DNA from: a virus
Lineage: Duplodnaviria > Heunggongvirae > Uroviricota > Caudoviricetes
Virus record (IMG/VR): IMGVR_UViG_2671180770_000010
Coordinates: 1-8,162 of that record
Strand: one strand, 5' to 3'
DNA: 8,162 bases
In this document: piece after piece, positions 92 through 7,916 of the stretch
Layout: the number at the start of each line of letters is the position of its first letter
Position numbering within the stretch: position 1 is the stretch's first letter
Program-made: the position numbers and the translations under genes
Notes under the pieces: generated by a model
What the model was told of the DNA's origin: nothing
Database searches by the model: none
What the model saw: the letters and a program-made list of their open reading frames with translations, nothing else

Positions 92-883
92 TTATTTCAC
101 CTGCACCACCACAAACTCATCCGGATCCGGCAGCACCATCAGCGGTGCGGACTGCGTCATGGTGAATTCACGGGCCGGATCGCCCACAGTCAGCCAGTGT
201 TTCGGATAACGGGAAGAGGCCACCACACCTTCGGACAACGCCTGCGCATCCTGAATGGCACCATAGCAACGAATGCCCTCTGCTGCCGTATTCCCCAGGA
301 CCAGTGTGCCCACCGGCAGATAACGTTTTTCGGTACCGTCGTCTGCCACATAAGACGTTTTCGCCACCACAATGGCCAGATCACCGTAATACCCTTTGAA
401 AGACACCACCGCTCCCAGGTCTTTCACTGCCGTTTCGAGTTGTGAATTTGAGCCGCGACGGGTATCCAGTTTTTCGCGGAACAGCTTAAAGCCATTCAGC
501 AGACGCCAGACCGTACCGTCCATAATGGCAATATTTACAAGACCGCTGGCCTGATCGCAGTAAAGGTCAATATCATGCGTCGGATCAAACGTATCACGGT
601 CCTGCTCAGACCATTTTTTACCGTCGGCCTGCTCAATGTTATTTCCTTCAGAGCGTCCGAAATCCACCTCGACCGTGTCAAACTGTTCCCCTTCCATGGT
701 GTATTTGCCATACAGCACGGCATTCACCGCCTGCATTTCTTCCACCTGGACAATGGCGTGCTCTTCCTGTTTGAGGTTATCGGTAATGATACGCAGACGA
801 CGGTAGGCCGGGTCGTTCAGCTGAGCCGGATCTTCACCAGGAAGGCGCTCAACCGCCTGCTGGTAATTAAATTCGTGTTTGGG
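92..883 (-). pseudogene. N-terminally truncated lambda gpE-family major capsid protein (roughly residues 80-341 retained)
   Basis: The translation carries gpE-like blocks (VEEMQAV, KLDTRRGSNS.LETAVKDLG, GDPAREFTM.QSAPLM, PDEFV.VQ). Hand translation upstream of the listed start shows the homology continuing to 883 (PKHEFNYQQAVERLPGEDPAQLNDPAYRRLRII). It then ends at an in-frame TAA at 884-886 with no start codon. Candidate internal starts are GTG 743-745 and ATG 734-736. Confidence 0.8.
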
Positions 884-1019
884 TTACATGAGTCAAATAT
901 GAAAGGATGTGAATGATTTGATTACGTTTTAGCTATAGAATTGAAATGGAAAATCCTTGAATGCAATACAACGTGCAATACATGGATGAAAACCATCACT
1001 CATTTAACAAGAGGAATCT

Positions 1020-1925
1020 ATGCGCTCACCCAACAGAATGCATGAACGCTCAACATTTTATAAGTATATGTCGTTGAATACCGCGAAGATTGTTCTTGAT
1101 TCATGCAGCCTTAGATGGAGTTCTCCGGTCCTATTTAATGACCCTTTTGATGTTCCAAGAGAAGTTATGCCTGGTATTAACGAAATTAATATTGGCAAAG
1201 CTTTAGCCCGCAAGTTAATAGCGGAGTTGATTACCCCCAGAGAAGACATACAAAATTTAAATCCTAGAATTAGAACAATGCTAAGTGATTTCCAAAAGTC
1301 ATTTCCTTTAGGCATACCCGCAGGATTAATTGAAAGATTTCAAGAAATGGTAAACATTCCACCAGTTGGGATTGGCGCTCCTGCGGCAATACAAGAAATG
1401 AAAGATGTCTGGCGAGGAATGCTTAATAACAGAAGGATTTTGTGTTTATCTGAGAGCCCTATAATCACTCCTATGTGGAATCACTATGCCGATAAATATA
1501 AAGGTATAGTTATCGAATTTGATTGTGTAGACTTTCTGGATAGCGCTTGGTTAATAGCCAAACCTATGAAATACACAGATGAAATGCCTCTAACTCACAC
1601 TGCTGAAGGGATGGCCGAGTTGCTTTTCATGCCAGACAATAAGTCAATTGAATATATCAATAATGAGATAATATTCATAAAAACAGAAGAATGGGCATAT
1701 GAAAGAGAGTGGAGAATTTCAACCTACGCTAGGCCAAATAGCACTGGTCAATATAGCGACTTAAAATTTCACCCTTTTGAGTTAAAATCTGTAATACTTG
1801 GTCCTCTTTTTGATGCCAGCGAGTTCGATGAAGTCGCATCACTAGTTAAGATGTATCCAAGAGCGAAATTATTTAAAAGTTCATTTGGGAACGACAGAAA
1901 AATATCCATAGTACCACTACCTTAA
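1020..1925 (+). CDS. Hypothetical 301-aa protein, DUF2971-like (tentative family assignment); candidate accessory or anti-phage cargo gene
   Basis: Long ORF with AGAGGA 5 nt before the ATG. It is strongly AT-rich compared with its flanks and is convergent with the neighbouring phage genes. Motifs YKY..L......L......SP.LFNDPFD, LCLSE and W.HYAD.YKG..IEFD match my recollection of DUF2971. Confidence 0.7.
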   Translation: MRSPNRMHERSTFYKYMSLNTAKIVLDSCSLRWSSPVLFNDPFDVPREVMPGINEINIGKALARKLIAELITPREDIQNLNPRIRTMLSDFQKSFPLGIPAGLIERFQEMVNIPPVGIGAPAAIQEMKDVWRGMLNNRRILCLSESPIITPMWNHYADKYKGIVIEFDCVDFLDSAWLIAKPMKYTDEMPLTHTAEGMAELLFMPDNKSIEYINNEIIFIKTEEWAYEREWRISTYARPNSTGQYSDLKFHPFELKSVILGPLFDASEFDEVASLVKMYPRAKLFKSSFGNDRKISIVPLP

Positions 1926-2031: not shown

Positions 2032-2583
2032 TTAACTTCGCTGATTATCCTTGATATACCTTTCAGCCATATCTGGAATGTTATCTGAGATCTGGTAAGC
2101 TCGAATAAATGCTTTACTGACCTCCATCTTAATGAAGTCCTGATACCGTTTTTCCATGCCAGGAAACTGTCGACAGATCGCAAGTGGAAGACTATCAATG
2201 ATTGCTCCAACTTCCCCAGTTAATTTCGACAAGGCATAAGTCGCAAATGCAGTGTCAATTACCTCACCTGTTTCGCTGGCATTCTTCAGTTCCTGTGCGT
2301 CGGCCTGCGCACGCGTAAGTCGATGGCGTTCATACTCAATAGTCCCTGGCAGGAGATCTGCCTCGCTGGCCTGCCGCAGTTCTTCAACCTCCCGGCGCAG
2401 CTTTTCGTTCTCAATTTCAGCATCCCTTTCGGCATACCATTTTATGACGGCGGCAGAGTCATAAAGCACCTCATTACCCTTGCCACCGCCTCGCAGAACG
2501 GGCATTCCCTGCTCCTGCCAGTTCTGAATGGTACGGATACTCGCACCGAAAATGTCAGCCAGCTGCTTTTTGTTGGCTTCCAT
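2032..2583 (-). CDS. Terminase small subunit, lambda Nu1 family (mosaic, divergent C-terminal part)
   Basis: The first ~103 residues are almost identical to lambda Nu1 as recalled (MEANKKQLADIFGASIRTIQNWQEQGMPVLRGGGKGNEVLYDSAAVIKWYAERDAEIENEKLRREVEELRQASEADL...). The remainder is recognisably related but divergent and AT-rich. A lambda-like cos lies immediately upstream and the length (183 aa) matches Nu1 (181 aa). Confidence 0.9.
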   Translation of the reverse strand: MEANKKQLADIFGASIRTIQNWQEQGMPVLRGGGKGNEVLYDSAAVIKWYAERDAEIENEKLRREVEELRQASEADLLPGTIEYERHRLTRAQADAQELKNASETGEVIDTAFATYALSKLTGEVGAIIDSLPLAICRQFPGMEKRYQDFIKMEVSKAFIRAYQISDNIPDMAERYIKDNQRS

Positions 2584-2610
2584 TGTTCATTCCACGGACA
2601 AAACCAGAGA

Positions 2611-2800
2611 AAGGAAACGACAGAGGCCAAAAAGCCTGTTTTTAGCACCTGTCGTTTCCTTTCTTTTTAGGGGGTGTTTTTAATAAAAACATTAAGTTAC
2701 GGCGAAGAAGAACGGAAACGCCTTAAACAGGAAAATTTTCACAAATAGCGAAAAACTGCGCGCCTGACGCCCCGTAACGTTCTGGATCACCGGAAAGGAC
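2611..2800 (-). other. Lambda-type cos site: conserved cosB (about 2611-2758), variant cosN (2761-2772), cosQ-like flank (about 2779-2800)
   Basis: The minus-strand sequence GTTACG-GGGCGTCAGGCG-CGCAGTTTTTCGCTATTTGTGAAAATTTTCCTGTTTAAGGCGTTTCCGTTCTTCTTCG...GAAAGGAAACGACAGGTGCT...CTGTCGTTTCCTTTC...GTGGAATGAACAATG parallels the lambda cos/Nu1 leader as I recall it. The 12-nt cosN equivalent is GGGCGTCAGGCG against lambda GGGCGGCGACCT. Confidence 0.7.
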
Positions 2801-2828: not shown

Positions 2829-3212
2829 TCAACCAATCAGCTTATAGCGACCATCCCGTGCATTGCGGCGTACACGCTCAATCTTGAGGCATAGCGCCGC
2901 ATCTGGCTTTTTTGGGACAGGTACGCGGCAATATTCAGAAGCGCGAGGAATATTATTTATCCAGTCGATCACTTCACTTAAATACCAGGCCTTACGCCCT
3001 TCCGTAACCTGCACACGCTCCGGGAACTCTCCACTAGCCTCAAGGTTTAGCAGTGTACGACGACTCAGGGTTGTAATTTCCATCACCTGATTCATATCAA
3101 CAAGGCGCTCGCTTAAACACATTTTGTCAGCGATAGCTTTTAATTCCTCTACAGCTGGATTCGGGTACATCATTTCGGCAATTGGCTTAAGGTCATTGTA
3201 ATCATTCTGCAT
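2829..3212 (-). CDS. AlpA/Xis-like HTH DNA-binding protein (127 aa), last gene of the capsid operon and adjacent to cos
   Basis: The C-terminal segment EITTLSRRTLLNLEASGEFPERVQVTEGRKAWYLSEVIDWI fits the AlpA-family MerR-like HTH pattern. The start ATG at 3210-3212 follows AGGGGGA, just after the upstream gene's TAA. Confidence 0.6.
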   Translation of the reverse strand: MQNDYNDLKPIAEMMYPNPAVEELKAIADKMCLSERLVDMNQVMEITTLSRRTLLNLEASGEFPERVQVTEGRKAWYLSEVIDWINNIPRASEYCRVPVPKKPDAALCLKIERVRRNARDGRYKLIG

Positions 3213-3223
3213 TGTATCCCCCT

Positions 3224-3565
3224 TTACACACGAGCCAGCGGCTGAACAGAAATACCTGAGCCAACAAACGCTGCAACCTTTACTGACAGTTCTTTAACAG
3301 ACTCAGGCCAGTTCAGAGCATCAACATTTAAGACACCTGTCTTATAGACCTGAGCCTGTGTTTTTTTCGCGGTGTCGATTTGTACAGCGGAAACATAAAC
3401 CGCTTTACCTACGCTCGAACCATCCCATACTACCAGTGCACCTGTTGCATCTTCCTGCATCAGTGGCGTAAATGCAGGAATTACCCCTTTATTAGCTGAA
3501 AATATCCCCAGCGTAGTCACCAGTGCTTCAGTGCCAGCCATGAGTTCAGTGTAATGAGTAGCCAT
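3224..3565 (-). CDS. Head decoration protein, lambda gpD family
   Basis: 113 aa against lambda D at 110 aa. Shared blocks include TPLMQEDATGALVVWDG (lambda TPLMLDTSSRKLVAWDG), YKTGVLNVDALNWPES (lambda YKSGTFRYEDVLWPEA) and AFVGSGISVQ (lambda AFAGTAISIV). A GGGGGAG ribosome-binding site sits between the upstream stop and the ATG. Confidence 0.8.
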   Translation of the reverse strand: MATHYTELMAGTEALVTTLGIFSANKGVIPAFTPLMQEDATGALVVWDGSSVGKAVYVSAVQIDTAKKTQAQVYKTGVLNVDALNWPESVKELSVKVAAFVGSGISVQPLARV

Positions 3566-3574
3566 TGCTCCCCC

Positions 3575-4615
3575 TTAGCCAATGCGAACGGTAACAAAAC
3601 GATTGATGCGGGCCGGTATTGGCTGTGGTGCTGAATGTGTCTGCACATATTCAATAGCCGGATCACCAGGCACAATATAGTTTTTCGGTGCAAGTTCGGC
3701 TTTAGTCAGCCCCATTCGGATTAGCTCCGGATCCTGAATACCGCCATAGGCGACAATCCCCTGAAGAGCCGTATTGCCAAGCACCATCAAATCAGGATCA
3801 AGGAAATGTTTTTCTGTTCCGTCCTCGTCGGTATAACGCCCGCTGTAAACAACAATCGCAACATCGCCCATATACCCTTTAAAACTCACCGAATCACCAA
3901 GGTCTTTAAGGGCCGTTTCCAGTTCGGAATTAGAACCACGACGGGTATCCAGAGCCTCTTTTATAGCTCTGAATGAACGGTATTTCTTCCATACATTACC
4001 GCCCATAATGATAATATTAGTGACGCCCTCACTAAATTCTGTGTAGCTCTCAATATCATCATTTGGATCAAAAGTTTCTTTATCCTTACCTGACCACTCA
4101 GCACCGCCAGACTGAGTGATGATATTTTGTGGTTTAATATTCCAGTCCAGCTCATAACGTTCAATACCATCGCCCTCAATGATATTTTTCCCCGTTGTGA
4201 TTGCCTGAACAGCAAGCCATTCAATACGTGCACGAATAGCTTTAGCTTGATTTACAATCGCCTGTTTAACTTTAATATTACGCGCCCCAAAAGCATTGTA
4301 TTGCTCAGGTGATACACCAGCAGGGCGCACAGCTAACTTATTTGGATCAATGCTGCTTTTCGGCTTCATATAGCCTGGACGAATTGTTTTTGATTCGTAC
4401 CCTTCGTCACGTGAAACTTTACTACCCACCATAGGAGAACAAAACGCTGCAATTGGGATATTTGGATCGTCGATTGTATCAAGAATAATATCGCGCGATT
4501 CAAACATTACCGAGCGAGTAAAAAACAAACTGGTAAACAACGCATTTAGTTGTTTTTGTACATCTACAGCATTAACCACCTGTACAAGCTGAGTAGGCGA
4601 ATATAAATCAACCAT
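3575..4615 (-). CDS. Major capsid protein, lambda gpE family (complete, 346 aa)
   Basis: gpE-like blocks run the full length (LYSPTQL..., RPGYMKPK, ITQSGGAEWS, DTRRGSNSELETALKDLG, GDPA.E). I moved the start to the ATG at 4613-4615, which has AAGAGG 6 nt upstream. The 404-aa ORF in the track is an upstream over-extension. Confidence 0.85.
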   Translation of the reverse strand: MVDLYSPTQLVQVVNAVDVQKQLNALFTSLFFTRSVMFESRDIILDTIDDPNIPIAAFCSPMVGSKVSRDEGYESKTIRPGYMKPKSSIDPNKLAVRPAGVSPEQYNAFGARNIKVKQAIVNQAKAIRARIEWLAVQAITTGKNIIEGDGIERYELDWNIKPQNIITQSGGAEWSGKDKETFDPNDDIESYTEFSEGVTNIIIMGGNVWKKYRSFRAIKEALDTRRGSNSELETALKDLGDSVSFKGYMGDVAIVVYSGRYTDEDGTEKHFLDPDLMVLGNTALQGIVAYGGIQDPELIRMGLTKAELAPKNYIVPGDPAIEYVQTHSAPQPIPARINRFVTVRIG

Positions 4616-4789
4616 ACGCATCCTCTTTGCATTCATTAAAAATAATTGTGGATATATGCTATCACCGATATTTGTCATGCGAACACATGCAACCGAGTGC
4701 AATGTTGTATAAAGTTTTGGGGTGACAACTTCAGTGCGGACAATTAGTGTTAATATCTTCACTCCCTTTGGTCGGGATTTATGTAGCAT

Positions 4790-4821
4790 GCCGGAAAATT
4801 TATTTTTTCCGGCCTTTTTTT
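4790..4821 (+). terminator. Plus-strand intrinsic-terminator-like hairpin between the SSB and capsid genes
   Basis: Stem GCCGGAAAA (4790-4798), loop TTTATT, stem TTTTCCGGC (4805-4813), then C and a T7 run. The T-run follows the hairpin only on the plus strand, which is antisense to the surrounding genes. Confidence 0.4.
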
Positions 4822-4832
4822 ATTGGCAATAT

Positions 4833-5282
4833 TTAAAACGGGATATCATCTCCCCATTGCTCATTATCTCCCACTGGTGGCTGGCTTCCTTGCTGATCTG
4901 CCTGTTGTTTTGCTCTGTTCAGTGCGTCAGTAGCCTGCCCCTGTTGGCCTTTTTTGCCGCCCGGTCGCACCGATCGCGCACTGATTACGCTGTCTGCGAT
5001 AACCTGCCAGCCCTGCCGCGTTTCGCCGTTCTGTCCAGTCCACTGGCTCATCTGCATGTTACCCGCCACGCTTAGGAGTTCGCCTTTGTGATGCTTTGCC
5101 AGCGCGTCGGCTTGTCTGCCAAACGCCAGGACAGATAACCACATCGTCGCCTGACCGTCATCCGACTGACTGCAGGGCAGTGATACCGCCATACGCGCCA
5201 GCGTCATGGGGGTGCCCTTGCTGGTCTGTTTTGTCTGCGGGTCGTCCACCAACCGCCCGTAAACTGATATTTGCGCCGTCAT
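4833..5282 (-). CDS. Single-stranded DNA-binding protein (SSB family), 149 aa
   Basis: OB-fold-like N-terminal region (ISVYGRLVDDPQ...TKQTSKGTPMT..., WLSVLAFGRQAD), a Gly/Gln-rich linker and the canonical acidic tail DDIPF. Its ATG overlaps the upstream gene's TGA as ATGA at 5279-5282. Confidence 0.8.
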   Translation of the reverse strand: MTAQISVYGRLVDDPQTKQTSKGTPMTLARMAVSLPCSQSDDGQATMWLSVLAFGRQADALAKHHKGELLSVAGNMQMSQWTGQNGETRQGWQVIADSVISARSVRPGGKKGQQGQATDALNRAKQQADQQGSQPPVGDNEQWGDDIPF

Positions 5283-5524
5283 GCTGCCTGCTCTCCGGAC
5301 TTAATATTGATTGTTGTCACTTCCTCCGCTTCAGCAATCTCCCGTTCGGTCAGAGTGGCAAAATTTGCAGCCGCCGTTGTCATGAATGCGCTAATCAGTT
5401 CGGGATGTGCTTTCGCGTATCCTTCCCCGGCGTTGCGGTCGATGATTTTTATCGACACCCTTAACCAGTGTTCCGTCAAATCAAGGGCGTGCGATTGTGA
5501 TTTTTTTGTGTGCTTCGCTGTCAT
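5279..5524 (-). CDS. Hypothetical 81-aa protein, translationally coupled to the SSB gene
   Basis: ORF sits directly downstream of the iteron region and overlaps the SSB start by ATGA. I do not recognise a family. Confidence 0.5.
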   Translation of the reverse strand: MTAKHTKKSQSHALDLTEHWLRVSIKIIDRNAGEGYAKAHPELISAFMTTAAANFATLTEREIAEAEEVTTINIKSGEQAA

Positions 5525-5570
5525 AGGCTTTATCTCACAGCAGTAAATTAAAATTTTTGCGTTTTAACCC

Positions 5571-5798
5571 TTCACCTGTTCACCTTTTGATATTTTCTCT
5601 TTTAATTCATAATGTTAATGGGTGAACAGTTTCACAAAAACTATTCACCAACTGTTCACCACTGTTCACCCTTGAAGCTCAATAAACAATCAAAAAGGTG
5701 AACAGTGAATAGTTTGGTGAACAGTTCATAAATAACTGTTCACCCTATAATATACTGATATAAAAGATATTTATGACAGGGTGAACAGTGGTGAACAG
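5571..5798. repeat. Iteron array (P4 ori/crr-type TGTTCACC repeats); putative replication origin
   Basis: About ten copies of CTGTTCACC or its complement GGTGAACAG in both orientations (5576-5584, 5621-5629, 5652-5660, 5662-5670, 5697-5705, 5716-5724, 5736-5744, 5780-5788, 5790-5798, plus degenerate copies). An AT-rich stretch lies at 5745-5779. The array is adjacent to the primase gene. Confidence 0.75.
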
Positions 5799-5811
5799 TT
5801 ATTCCATAAGT

Positions 5812-7632
5812 TTAATTTTTGCTATCGTCATTAGTGACCGATACACATGATGGCATCCAGTCTTCTGATTCCTCCGTCAGTGTCACGTTTGAACGCAAAC
5901 CGTGCTTCGTTTTCCGTTTCATATACTCCCTGCCATATTCCGCCATTGCCCCCGGCATATCTTTACCGAAGCGCGTCAGTGTTACAGGTTTACCAAACCC
6001 ATGTGCCCTCATATAAGCCAGATAGGCATGATAGAGATACCTGCGTGGGCTGAATGGCACAATTTCAGCATTACCCACTAACAGGCCATCACACATTACC
6101 GATGCCATGAGATAGCCGCAGAAGTCCACCAGCGAATCCCCCTCTCGCTTTATCGCCAGTGCTTCTTCAGATTTCTGCTGCTCATATAACAGGCGTCTGG
6201 CTTCGTCCTGATCAGCAAACCGTGTAAGCAGATGACGAATCACTACCGCCAGCTCACCTTCTATTTTTTCCGCCAGCATCGAATCGCGTTCGTTCTCCGG
6301 TACAACTTCCGAAAAATTGAATATCACCCGACGACGTGAGATCCCCCCGCTGCGGTCACTGAATGACATGGCGTTATTGTTAACCACCAGCACTACTGCC
6401 GGAATACGCGTTGAATAGGGGGCTTTGTGTTTCGGGTCAATTGCCACCTTGTCACCGCCTGTAATGGCCTTAATCCCTGCCCCATCACCAGCGTAGCGGG
6501 TCATATCTGGCATGATAATCAGCGAAAAGCCAACCACTAACGCACGTTCCCTTGCATCTTCCAGCGCCTTCATGCTTGCTGATACTGTATTAGCCTTACC
6601 CGCCAGCATGGTGCAAATCTCCGCCATCACGCTTTTACCACTTCCCCCCGGCCCTGTTACCTCAATGAATAACTGCCAGTCGTACCGGTTCGCCAGCACC
6701 ATGAATAATGCCGCCAGTACGCGATCTGCCTTGCGGTCATTCTCAGCCACCGAACGGCGCAACCACTTCCAGAAATTCGGCGCATGTGTTGCCAGCGTTT
6801 CCCCCTCTGCTGGTGGGCTGAAAGGTAATTCACTGGCAATTAACAACCAGTCGTTTTTGTTATGCTCCCGAAAATTACCTGTTCTGGTATCAAATACCCC
6901 GTTACTGAATCCAATCAGGTTACGGGCTGTATTCCCCATTACAGGCAAACTTAACTTCATGGTATCTACCGCCGATTTAATGGCGTTCTGCGAATAGCTG
7001 ATCTCCGCATCAATGAAAATCTGCGCCATAGCACGCTGTAACTCTTTATCCTGAACCGGCTCCCATACAACGCCGTTGTAATGATGAACGGTGTCAGAGT
7101 CGGCATTGATTGCCAGTTCGCCGCCGTAATGTGCCAGGAGAACTTCACCGCGCTGGCTGGCCCCCATCTGATTCAACGCCAAAGATGAAGCACGCTCGTC
7201 ATTTTTGCGCTCTGCCTTCTTCACTGGCAGTTCAATCACCAGACTTTCCCCATGCTCCGCTTCAGCTTTTAGGCCGACAAGGCGCGGAGTCCAGTCTTCA
7301 GGCTCTCGATCAACAAAGCTACGGTAACAACGTGCTTCCTTTACGCCTGCAATAGCAAGTAATGTCGCAACCTTCGTCAGACTTTTCTCTGCAATCTTTC
7401 CGGCACGATAAACACGCACATAATGACGGCCTTCATCGATAATTTGCATATCATCCAGGTTTTCCAGTTGTTCCGTACCCAGAATTACTGGTGGTGTATC
7501 ATCTGCTGCAATATGCTTACCTGCCCATTCATTCCATTCTTTTGCATGGCTCCAGGCATCACTGCCAGCAAAAATGATGACTTCCGTCATTTTGTCGCGC
7601 GGTTGGTATTTTAAGTTCGGAGCACGTTTCAT
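5812..7632 (-). CDS. P4 alpha-like replication protein (phage/plasmid primase-helicase family; pri-rep)
   Basis: 606-aa ORF with the Walker A motif GPGGSGKS (EVTGPGGSGKSV) in its central region. Its size, architecture and the adjacent TGTTCACC iterons are typical of P4-family and PICI primase/helicases. The ATG overlaps the upstream ORF stop as ATGA at 7629-7632. Confidence 0.85.
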   Translation of the reverse strand: MKRAPNLKYQPRDKMTEVIIFAGSDAWSHAKEWNEWAGKHIAADDTPPVILGTEQLENLDDMQIIDEGRHYVRVYRAGKIAEKSLTKVATLLAIAGVKEARCYRSFVDREPEDWTPRLVGLKAEAEHGESLVIELPVKKAERKNDERASSLALNQMGASQRGEVLLAHYGGELAINADSDTVHHYNGVVWEPVQDKELQRAMAQIFIDAEISYSQNAIKSAVDTMKLSLPVMGNTARNLIGFSNGVFDTRTGNFREHNKNDWLLIASELPFSPPAEGETLATHAPNFWKWLRRSVAENDRKADRVLAALFMVLANRYDWQLFIEVTGPGGSGKSVMAEICTMLAGKANTVSASMKALEDARERALVVGFSLIIMPDMTRYAGDGAGIKAITGGDKVAIDPKHKAPYSTRIPAVVLVVNNNAMSFSDRSGGISRRRVIFNFSEVVPENERDSMLAEKIEGELAVVIRHLLTRFADQDEARRLLYEQQKSEEALAIKREGDSLVDFCGYLMASVMCDGLLVGNAEIVPFSPRRYLYHAYLAYMRAHGFGKPVTLTRFGKDMPGAMAEYGREYMKRKTKHGLRSNVTLTEESEDWMPSCVSVTNDDSKN

Positions 7633-7916
7633 TTGTTACCTCCGGCAACTAACATTGCCCGAATTTTGCGGATATAGCCTGCGGCACGCCTCTGATTATC
7701 TGTCTTGCAATTTTTTACCAGAATGAAATCTCTTTCGAACTGCTGACGCGGCATAACACATTCAAAATCATAACCATCACGCAAATAAGAGACACGACGA
7801 TCATCAACCGAAATAATCTTTACCCGATAGCCATAGCTGTCTTTGAAAATATCCCCAAGGCTGATTTTTGAATGAGTTTGACCGCTGGCAATAAAGCCAG
7901 AAAATTTATTTTTCAT
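7629..7916 (-). CDS. Hypothetical 95-aa protein, translationally coupled to the primase gene
   Basis: ORF has GGAG 8 nt upstream of the ATG at 7914-7916 and an ATGA stop/start overlap with the primase gene. No family recognised. Confidence 0.5.
   Translation of the reverse strand: MKNKFSGFIASGQTHSKISLGDIFKDSYGYRVKIISVDDRRVSYLRDGYDFECVMPRQQFERDFILVKNCKTDNQRRAAGYIRKIRAMLVAGGNK

Follow-up and report, generated by a model that had tools for sequence, protein, structure and literature searches.

An E-before-D capsid and decoration gene pair in the late zone of a PICI embedded in a lambda-like prophage

What is the task of a capsid gene and a head decoration gene which stand side by side, in reverse order compared with lambda, with no other head genes in the immediate neighborhood? 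This question was raised by a stretch of 8,162 nucleotides of viral DNA (the window). A first-pass annotation had recognized a lambda gpE-like gene followed by a gpD-like gene and a gene for a small AlpA-like helix-turn-helix (HTH) protein, and had suggested that the pair remodels or poisons capsids. Here we call the capsid and decoration genes of the element E* and D*. The window is the right-hand part (about 7.3 kb) of a phage-inducible chromosomal island (PICI) which is embedded in a helper prophage and belongs to the published '11capE' type, and E*-D*-HTH is the capsid unit of its 'late zone'. Many PICIs of enterobacteria possess such a pair, and it has been described before. The identity of the locus and of its three genes we hold to be very nearly certain. 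The features are collected in Table 1.

Table 1. Features of the window. Order of numbers is as read; the point denotes a feature without strand.
Feature	Position	Strand	Basis	Details
Helper E gene, 3' part (from about codon 80), then FI start	92..885	-	translation, Pfam	PF03864 profile positions 119-329 (Pfam)
attR core AACCCAAACA, island/helper E junction	876..885	-	L001 att block maps here	within KPKH codons
DUF2971 accessory gene, PADLOC candidate defence PDC-S31	1020..1925	+	low G+C, opposite strand	
Chimeric small terminase	2032..2583	-	PDB 6HN7/1J9I; helper NohD; TerS of L013, L014	
Lambda-type cos region (cosQ-like, cosN-equivalent, cosB)	2584..2800	-	aligned with L001 helper cos	cosN-equivalent 12-mer at 2761-2772
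AlpA-family winged-HTH protein (predicted), N- and C-terminal extensions	2829..3212	-	Pfam PF05930, PDB 8C3T, phrog_2790	ATG 3212, stop at 2829, 127 aa; SD GGGGGA 3217-3222
D*, gpD/SHP-type head decoration protein homologue	3224..3565	-	Pfam PF02924, PDB, phrog_49	ATG 3565, stop 3226-3224, 113 aa; SD GGGGGA 3569-3574, abuts E* stop codon
E*, lambda-gpE-type major capsid protein homologue	3575..4615	-	Pfam PF03864, PDB, lambda E identity	ATG 4615, TAA 3577-3575, 346 aa (minus-strand reading); RBS AAGAGGA 4627-4621
Candidate promoter/operator of E*-D*-HTH unit	4656..4702	-	repeats and extended -10-like element; putative function	
GC-rich hairpin between SSB gene and E* unit	4790..4813	.	hairpins kept here in relatives	T-run on + strand only
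Replication zone of island	4833..7916	-	Pfam; same order in L001, L012, L013	
SSB gene	5282-4833	-	Pfam	
81-aa ORF of replication zone	5524-5279	-		
D5_N/DUF5906/Pox_D5 primase-helicase	7632-5812	-	Pfam	
DUF4222 gene	7916-7629	-	Pfam	

E* is predicted to encode a complete HK97-fold shell protein of the lambda E type which belongs to a PICI lineage. The Phage_cap_E profile (PF03864) matched the protein at positions 4-327 of 329 (Pfam, 6e-41). This confirmed the proposed homology to lambda E along the whole length. In the PDB the matches were 3BQW (1e-120), the crystal structure of the CFT073 island capsid protein with about 56% identity, and lambda gpE (8.5e-76). Identity to lambda E was 40% overall. 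By blocks it was 12% in residues 1-25 and in residues 101-125 and rose to 72% in residues 226-250; the assignment of the divergence to the N-terminal third was roughly right. Between PICI and phage E proteins 73 columns were invariant. A longer open reading frame with 4789 as the E* start was rejected, PGAP and the protein clusters all giving 346 aa.

D* is the predicted gpD/SHP-type decoration partner of E*. It matched the HDPD profile (PF02924; Pfam, 4.5e-15) and solved structures at full length (SHP 1TD0, 5e-16; lambda gpD, 1e-11) as well as phrog_49 (1e-25). The third gene product is a predicted DNA-binding protein of the AlpA family with matches to Phage_AlpA (PF05930; Pfam, 7.6e-9), AlpA 8C3T (PDB, 2e-9) and phrog_2790 (1e-49). 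This 127-aa family is kept across Enterobacteriaceae. Judged by these scores, the homologies of all three predicted proteins are far beyond chance. NCBIfam returned no match for the five proteins tested. An AlphaFold2 model of the HTH protein from a 17-sequence alignment was poor (mean pLDDT 50, pTM 0.22). The possibility that the AlpA-like protein is an Rpp was rejected by sequence as RppC (6HLK) was not matched at E<=1 in the PDB; RppC was seen weakly by the TerS DNA-binding domain alone (E=0.053).

The E-then-D order on the minus strand is real (4615-3575, then 3565-3224), and E*, D* and the HTH gene form one translationally coupled unit. The spacers are, as had been claimed, exactly 9 nt between E* and D* (GGGGGAGCA) and exactly 11 nt between D* and the HTH gene (AGGGGGATACA). 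A GGGGGA ribosome-binding site had been assigned to each gene; it precedes D* and the HTH gene, whereas E* has AAGAGGA. The interval 3224-4615 to which the three genes had been ascribed contains the E-like and the D-like gene, and the HTH gene (3212-2829) lies outside. Purifying selection acts on each of the three genes, with dN/dS ratios of 0.07-0.19 (E*, 0.07-0.09; D*, 0.09-0.135; HTH gene, 0.17-0.19); between genera the synonymous sites are saturated. D* follows E* in frame in this island, with a stop-to-ATG distance of 12 nt, and the database contains one 463-aa E-D fusion protein (P0005), a single sequence. Programmed read-through from E* into D* was considered and rejected because the frame offset varies among relatives (0, 1 or 2) and the fusion is a singleton.

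A candidate promoter/operator upstream of E* consists of three direct repeats with a period of about 10 nt, TTGCAC (4702-4697), TTGCAT (4692-4687) and TTCGCAT (4683-4677), and, downstream of these, of an extended -10-like element (TGATAGCAT, 4664-4656). The repeat pattern had four matches in the window, two of them at the candidate promoter, compared with 0.36 expected by chance. Ahead of E* the repeats occupied the corresponding position in L001, L012, L013, L015, L016 and L018. In the more remote islands (L002-L011) the region before E* contained no TTGCAY motif; therefore, the repeats are a feature of a sub-clade. In a generic sigma-70 scan the candidate did not pass. Because the T-run after the hairpin next to the SSB gene is on the plus strand only, this hairpin is at most a putative terminator for the minus strand. 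A generic promoter/terminator scan gave no clear intrinsic terminators bounding the unit on the coding strand. The boundaries of the operon are thus putative.

Where does the island reside? It interrupts the E gene of a lambda-like prophage near codon 80 and is co-oriented with the late operon. The 3' fragment of helper E at the edge of the window shared 64% identity with its counterpart in L001, a lambda-type E fragment, and 42% with E*; this 3' fragment and the FI start share the strand with the island genes. L001 is a 96.5% identical relative. There, the left side of the helper reads Nu1-A-W-B-C-D-E5', followed by the island in the order int-alpA-...-pri-ssb-E*-D*-HTH-cos-terS-DUF2971, and then by E3'-FI-tail of the helper. 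An identity block of 10 bp (AACCCAAGCA) is present at both ends, attL and attR, and it agrees with the 10-bp att block reported for 11capE (PMC10111431). The att-bounded element of L001 has 10,570 bp and runs from int to the DUF2971 gene; int and alpA are at its far end, a zone before which the window ends. All island genes but two are on one strand. The same layout, int and alpA included, recurs in L012-L014. Both halves of E flank the island in L001, L013, L014, L017 and L018.

Between the att sites of L001 no genes for portal, protease, scaffold, terL, tail, lysis, head-tail connector or HNH proteins were present. The lack of such genes, the length, int and alpA at one end, the mostly shared strand and a primase/SSB module of its own agree with the description of Gram-negative PICIs (about 10-20 kb; Fillol-Salom et al., 2018). 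The first-pass annotation was right to assign the pair to an element of the satellite type and not to an autonomous head module. Its remark that head genes do not adjoin the pair holds inside the element; just beyond the island we encountered portal, protease, D, terL and Nu1. Head genes in standard order outside the window, which the annotation had named as evidence against its own view, thus exist in L001. However, they belong to the helper prophage, the E gene of which is split by the island, so that the satellite interpretation stands.

Next to the capsid unit the island carries its own packaging determinants. The cos region was compared with the region upstream of Nu1 (nohD) in the helper prophage of L001. 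The cosN-equivalent 12-mer of the island is GGGCGTCAGGCG, that of the L001 helper GGGCGGCGACCT; cosB of the island is nearly identical to that of lambda. The small terminase is a chimera. Residues 1-98 are identical to lambda Nu1 in 96 of 98 positions, and residues 101-183 constitute a C-terminal half of PICI lineage. In relatives the slot which is occupied here by the DUF2971 gene carries either Abi_C or a restriction endonuclease.

Is the reversed order a local inversion? The neighborhood survey comprised 18 related loci from 9 genera, and E* preceded D* in all of them; the survey was limited to 18 loci because the peptide patterns used for a search of genome contigs with the PICI-clade E* alignment were narrow and returned four loci. 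The islands with this order carry three different replication modules, and the adjoining helper prophages always have D before E. Thus, E* before D* is the fixed order of a PICI capsid lineage, a lineage hallmark and not a local inversion. The inverted order noted initially is real, but this locus shares it with the whole lineage. A small DNA-binding gene invariably accompanies the pair as a coupled gene, and the candidate promoter with its repeats is conserved within this sub-clade. Some of the islands occupy chromosomal sites (L002, L004, L010, L011 and L012; a place next to fis is one example) and some lie inside prophages; that of L006 is embedded in a portal gene, not in E. In the distant relative L010 a gene for an S49 protease follows D*. 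One related island was noticed in a myovirus-like prophage, beside a truncated tail-sheath-like ORF which lies among tail genes of the P2 type. The module was present in 365 of 5,426 complete E. coli genomes (about 7%).

E* is set apart from phage proteins. Among 50,697 phage records there was no E homologue with more than 42% and no D homologue with more than 40% identity, and in the protein universe there is an identity gap around E* between 51% and 43%. Compared with the E of its own helper, E* is only 42-50% identical. E* proteins that are 99% identical occur in helpers with E proteins only 64% identical; conversely, helper E proteins 98% identical host E* proteins only 85% identical. On these comparisons E* does not track or co-vary with the helper E sequence.

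How does the island compare with known systems? It was likened to Eco567.11capE, the NRG857c element, by the published description (Tommasini, Mageeney & Williams, 2023; PMC10111431). According to that paper, islands of the 11capE / E:Phage_cap_E group have about 10.6-11 kb, a 10-bp core near codon 80 of E, co-orientation with the late operon, a divergent capsid gene of their own and four zones, integration, Bro, replication and late. Compared with that description, the late zone of our island adds the chimeric lambda-type cos/TerS and the DUF2971 cargo. The passages of the paper considered here do not mention a decoration gene (no occurrence of 'decoration'), the E*-before-D* order or an AlpA-like third gene. 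EcCICFT073 has c1499 (capsid, PDB 3BQW) followed by c1500 (head decoration) (Fillol-Salom et al., 2018; PMC6092414). It shares the E* lineage (about 56% identity, E=1e-120), with D* next, downstream of the replication module. It differs by its chromosomal site and by packaging via Rpp (c1503) instead of an own TerS. Going by the P0030-type loci L002/L003, its third gene would encode a 141-aa protein which, at 22% identity, cannot be aligned with the HTH protein, and E* would have a small RHH-like ORF in front of it.

Further relationships are more distant. Ccm of SaPIbov5 is, like E*, an HK97-fold capsid homologue in a cos-type satellite; a sequence relationship is not expected, and Ccm lacks a decoration partner. 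Capsid-forming PICIs of the EcCIEDL933 type are satellites with an own capsid protein and small terminase; however, their gene set extends to portal, protease, head-tail connectors, HNH and TerL, which are all missing from this island as judged from L001. By analogy the sid-delta-psu operon of satellite P4 similarly joins head-morphogenesis and decoration genes to a transcription factor. Homology is absent: Sid acts as an external scaffold, Psu has no relationship to gpD, and the activator Delta is a zinc-finger protein, not one of the AlpA type.

Experiments are at hand for EcCICFT073 only, with an E* about 56% identical to the one studied here. Deletion of c1499 or c1500 altered neither island transfer nor lambda interference, an island with c1499::cat still moved at high frequency, and the packaged DNA was without exception of phage size; the authors state that they found no c1499 phenotype (PMC6092414). 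When EcCICFT073 genes were cloned singly only c1503 inhibited lambda, and interference maps to Rpp (PMC6739421). The role in capsid remodelling or poisoning advanced initially was not borne out by these data.

Taken as a whole, the explanation we favor is a late-zone capsid unit of a PICI with working E* and D*, and we do so tentatively, at somewhat less than an even chance. Even a little more guarded is our view of the mechanism. E* and D* would be working structural proteins that jointly provide the whole outer shell of a head; the helper would supply portal, protease/scaffold, TerL and tail. Island concatemers would be packaged via the island's own lambda-type cos site and the chimeric TerS. 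When embedded, the unit may also be read through from the late promoter of the helper. The contribution of E*/D* would be conditional or redundant with helper E and D, which would explain the null deletions with lambda, phi80 and the resident helper. Lambda gpD binds only to the expanded E lattice. The faithful co-inheritance of a cognate D* therefore suggests that E* ends up in expanded shells.

Possibly E*, with D*, replaces the split helper E in cis until excision, so that heads are assembled from composite genomes. Such a back-up was proposed by Tommasini et al. (PMC10111431), and the embedded, co-oriented configuration speaks for it. However, the same pair is found in the islands at chromosomal sites named above, where no phage gene is split, and once in a portal gene; D* would be superfluous as helper D is intact, and E* is only 42-50% identical to the helper's own E. 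We consider this explanation unlikely. A redirection of capsid size, in which E* (with D*) forces small shells that exclude the helper genome in the manner of SaPIbov5 Ccm, was the reading of the first-pass annotation, and Ccm is a precedent for a capsid-protein homologue in a satellite. Yet four island units of 10.57 kb would make 42 kb, which in view of the packaging limits of lambda fits a normal head. PmCI172, in which a capsid homologue is present, does make small heads (PMC6092414). Size redirection is demonstrated for Ccm; for the EcCICFT073 homologue it is contradicted by the phage-sized DNA and by the failure of c1499 or c1500 deletions to relieve interference (PMC6092414). We hold it to be still less probable than a back-up in cis.

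Just as improbable as size redirection is poisoning, i.e. co-assembly of E* with the capsid protein of the helper or of a non-helper lambdoid phage which spoils the heads. PICIs interfere with their helpers and carry defence cargo, here the PDC-S31 candidate. However, poisoning would not require a matching decoration protein, whereas D* is retained throughout and is under purifying selection; E* does not track helper E, and lambda interference was intact after deletion of c1499 or c1500 and maps to Rpp (PMC6739421). Could the pair then be a functionless remnant of a captured late-gene cluster? Capture of helper late genes by PICI late zones has been described (PMC10111431), and the EcCICFT073 homologues are without phenotype so far. 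Against this are dN/dS ratios which are low between genera although synonymous sites are saturated, ORFs which are intact and in constant order in 18/18 loci, and the lack of a close phage donor among the 50,697 records; frequent frameshifts or stops, or dN/dS near 1, were not seen. A remnant is highly improbable. Finally, the pair might be regarded as part of a regular prophage head module in which two genes were inverted locally, since portal, protease, D, terL and Nu1 are a few kb away in relatives. Yet an att site, integrase, alpA and the replication module separate those genes from E*-D*, and the prophage has its own split E and its own D. The att junctions already refute this last explanation, to which we give practically no credence.

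The element type, a helper-embedded PICI in gene E, and the enterobacterial PICI capsid/decoration pair are both published; therefore, we do not claim a new type of system. The pair nevertheless poses a small puzzle: it is strongly conserved in at least nine genera, is under purifying selection and is without close phage counterpart, yet the knock-outs in EcCICFT073 gave no phenotype. Experiments could be guided by the E*-before-D* hallmark, by the coupling to a DNA-binding gene and a candidate promoter, and by the independence of E* from helper E. A more far-reaching idea, which we rate as rather doubtful, is that E* and D* constitute a 'shell-only' capsid kit, with portal, scaffold/protease, TerL and tail borrowed from the helper. 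In the embedded state its expression would come from the helper late operon, E* taking over from the split E, and heads with island DNA would be built of satellite protein. Hints are that E* does not track helper E and that one island lies among myovirus-like P2-type tail genes. If true, such a shell-only kit would be a grade between classical PICIs, which use helper protein throughout, and capsid-forming PICIs.

The E. coli 980-2 region (L001, 96.5% identical to the window) displays the complete composite. Nu1, A, W, B, C and D of a lambdoid prophage lie in their standard arrangement; an element of 10,570 bp then interrupts gene E, and the remainder of E, FI and the tail genes come after it. 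The element contains int, alpA, small genes, DUF4222, primase, SSB, E* (the lambda-gpE-type capsid homologue), D* (the gpD/SHP-type decoration homologue), an AlpA-like HTH gene, cos-terS and DUF2971, in this order. A 10-bp block, AACCCAAGCA, is common to both junctions. The 11-kb element 11capE of Tommasini, Mageeney and Williams occupies a 10-bp core within gene E of a lambda-like prophage and itself encodes a capsid protein of this family, from a gene in which the att position is too diverged for the island to target (PMC10111431). The window element is a 'helper-embedded PICI' as described by these authors. Of the features that define Gram-negative and helper-embedded PICIs, those tested were found in the element (the window is without the integrase end); the defining features of capsid-forming PICIs were not. 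The first-pass annotation, made from sequence alone, was correct in proposing a satellite-borne capsid pair, and the L001 composite and its junctions place the pair in a PICI. Such a pair is already published. The helper E allele in the window (92-885) shares just 64% identity with its lambda-type counterpart in the L001 helper (L001 13983-14771). The two islands, in contrast, share 96.5% identity; one island type is thus resident in lambdoid prophages that differ considerably.

Features of the window and RHH-like ORFs of related loci
Feature	Position	Strand	Remarks
DUF4222, D5-type primase-helicase, 81-aa ORF, SSB		minus	upstream of E*
TTGCAY repeats	4702-4677		upstream of E*
Extended -10-like TGATAGCAT	4664-4656		41-49 nt before E* ATG
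E* (lambda-E-like, 346 aa)	ATG 4615, TAA 3577-3575	minus	RBS AAGAGGA 4627-4621
D* (gpD-like, 113 aa)	start 3565, stop 3226-3224	minus	9 nt (GGGGGAGCA) after E*
AlpA-like HTH gene (127 aa)	start 3212, end 2829	minus	11 nt (AGGGGGATACA) after D*
Lambda-type cos region			downstream of HTH gene
Nu1-type small terminase (TerS)	2032-2800 (with cos)	minus	downstream of HTH gene; 273 bits to Phage_Nu1
DUF2971 gene	1020-1925	plus	opposite to unit; low GC
Second lambda-E-type gene, 3' two-thirds	885-92		begins abruptly at '..KPKH'; then FI start
10-bp block, window allele AACCCAAACA	876-885		
RHH-like ORF	L002 6729-7001; L003 6795-7001; L006 6789-7001; L010 6774-7001; L011 6795-7001		ends at E* start

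By profile and structure-database matches, the family assignments of the three proteins are secure. In Pfam, E* matched Phage_cap_E (6e-41), D* HDPD (4.5e-15) and the HTH protein Phage_AlpA (7.6e-9). The PDB matches were 3BQW (1e-120) and lambda gpE (8.5e-76) for E*, SHP (5e-16) and gpD (1e-11) for D*, and AlpA 8C3T (2e-9) for the HTH protein. E* is 40% identical to lambda E overall, with a minimum of 12% (residues 1-25 and 101-125) and a maximum of 72% (residues 226-250). The closely spaced succession of E-like, gpD-like and AlpA-like genes was confirmed on the minus strand; of the GGGGGA ribosome-binding sites proposed for each gene, that of E* is a different one, while the rest of the description stood. 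The E* stop and the D* start share one frame (window 3563-3577), and a single database protein, P0005 (463 aa), is an E*-D* fusion. Both look incidental because the frame relation is not kept in relatives. E* and D* are expressed as a coupled unit, and the satellite lies inside the helper late operon, in the same orientation. It holds a complete shell protein and the cognate decoration protein, without portal, protease/scaffold, TerL or tail.

The E-then-D order had been noted as the inverse of that in lambda. We compiled 18 related loci by exact look-ups of proteins from nine E* clusters (51-87% identity to the window E*), a genome scan and an E. coli collection; they cover Escherichia, Serratia, Edwardsiella, Salmonella, Lelliottia, Kluyvera, Superficieibacter, Cedecea and Kosakonia. 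E* preceded D* in 18/18, at a spacing of -1 to 14 nt. The order also holds for the model island EcCICFT073, in which c1499 (capsid; crystal structure 3BQW) precedes c1500 (decoration) (PMC6092414). Thus, the order is not peculiar to the locus. Adjoining helper head modules, where visible, always had D before E, as in lambda (L001, L006/7, L013, L014, L017, L018). The surveyed islands use three replication modules (D5-type primase, DUF927, AAA_25), and their sites vary, some being chromosomal (e.g. next to fis), others inside a prophage, in its E or its portal gene. In E. coli the E*-D*-HTH module is common: at a coverage of at least 80% it is present in 365 of 5,426 complete genomes, where it is annotated routinely. 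A Salmonella island with an E*-D*-AlpA-like unit (L008, 1-15032, and L009) lies amid P2-type tail genes of a myovirus-like prophage, with Pfam matches to Phage_tail_fib, Phage_tube and P2_GpU around it and to GPO_N in L009. An adjoining ORF (L008 11260-12165) resembles by eye the 3' part of a tail-sheath gene. If this prophage is the helper, its capsid protein may belong to another family than E*.

Loci of the window's sub-clade, of Serratia and of Salmonella have the AlpA-like gene next after D*; its 127-aa form is conserved in many Enterobacteriaceae. In EcCICFT073-like islands the third gene encodes a 141-aa protein which cannot be aligned with the HTH protein (22% identity). There, the E* start coincides exactly with the end of a conserved ORF of 68-90 aa, whose N-terminal sequence (GGVSVYISPDIVAAL...) by eye resembles a ribbon-helix-helix (RHH). 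No such ORF occurs in the window's sub-clade, where the AlpA-like gene is present downstream of D* instead. Either way, a small gene of DNA-binding appearance (for the RHH-like ORF, by eye) is coupled to the capsid pair and accompanies it. The predicted structure model of the HTH protein was of low confidence. An identity of this protein with Rpp, the redirecting phage packaging protein, was rejected by sequence comparison. Upstream of E* in the window's sub-clade lie a hairpin and, after it, two or three TTGCAY repeats with 10-nt spacing. The two-repeat pattern matched four times in the window, twice upstream of E* (chance expectation 0.36), and recurred at the same position in six relatives. 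Together with the -10-like element, the repeats constitute a candidate regulated promoter of the unit; a generic promoter scan made no call at this position.

Residues 1-98 of the island TerS match lambda Nu1 at 96/98, and the cosB DNA upstream is near-identical to lambda. Over residues 101-183 the match is instead to TerS of the sister islands L013 and L014, in its C-terminal half; the N-terminal DNA-binding domains of these two proteins have no relation to Nu1. Island TerS is, judged by these alignments, a chimera. The 12-nt cosN-equivalent is GGGCGTCAGGCG in the window vs GGGCGGCGACCT in the L001 helper prophage; the cohesive ends of the island would thus differ from those of the helper. 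In PADLOC, the DUF2971 protein matches PDC-S31, a candidate defence family (2.5e-32), and its region has a G+C content of about 37-39%; at this position, sister islands encode either Abi_C or a restriction endonuclease. The right end of the island is a variable cargo/defence slot. L012, at a chromosomal site outside a prophage, encodes a primase 100% identical to that of the window and has the same E*-D*-HTH-TerS order; it shares one E* protein with L013. Identities between window and L013 are unequal (primase 100%, E* 84%, D* 95%, HTH 79%, TerS 40%), which indicates that the late zone is strongly mosaic.

Close phage homologues of the pair were not found in 50,697 phage records (best E match 41.7%, best D match 40.2%). 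Full-length E* relatives in the protein universe form a clade at 51-99% identity, the next being at most 43%. The PICI E*/D* lineage is, on these comparisons, distinct from the phage genes. In an alignment of PICI and phage E, 73 columns were invariant throughout and 22 further columns were fixed differently by group, e.g. C-terminal GDPAIEYVQTHSAPQP vs GDPAREFTMxQSAPLM. dN/dS, computed for unsaturated synonymous change only, amounted to 0.07-0.09 (E*), 0.09-0.135 (D*) and 0.17-0.19 (HTH gene). Comparisons between genera gave saturated synonymous sites (pS ~0.75) at a pN of 0.17-0.38. By evolutionary criteria all three genes are functional, and the view of E*-D* as a relic is weakened. A capsid-remodelling or capsid-poisoning role had been suggested at first pass. 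In EcCICFT073, which has the nearest homologue studied by experiment, deletion of c1499 or c1500 left transfer and lambda interference unaltered, c1499 was replaceable by a marker and the DNA in particles was phage-sized (PMC6092414); interference maps to Rpp (PMC6739421). Thus, such a role was tested in the model island and is unsupported. This weakens poisoning; redirection of capsid size, as by the SaPIbov5 capsid homologue Ccm, is likewise weakened. 99%-identical E* proteins occur in helpers with 64%-identical E, and 98%-identical helper E proteins host E* just 85% identical. E* does not track helper E; this speaks against a requirement that E* and helper E be finely compatible within mixed lattices. 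A function of the pair as back-up for the split helper E gene is also weakened.

Lambda gpD binds the expanded E lattice only. D* always adjoins E* and is under selection; by extension from lambda biology, E* would therefore reach expanded shells. Our best reading, at less than even confidence, is that E* and D* may be genuine structural proteins making a self-contained shell kit, the use of which would be conditional or redundant. Besides the argument from gpD, the shell-kit reading is supported by the independence of E* from helper E and by one relative, a Lelliottia island next to fis, that appends an S49 (lambda gpC-like) protease gene directly to E*-D* (L010 8409-9752). This protease is a step towards a fuller head module.
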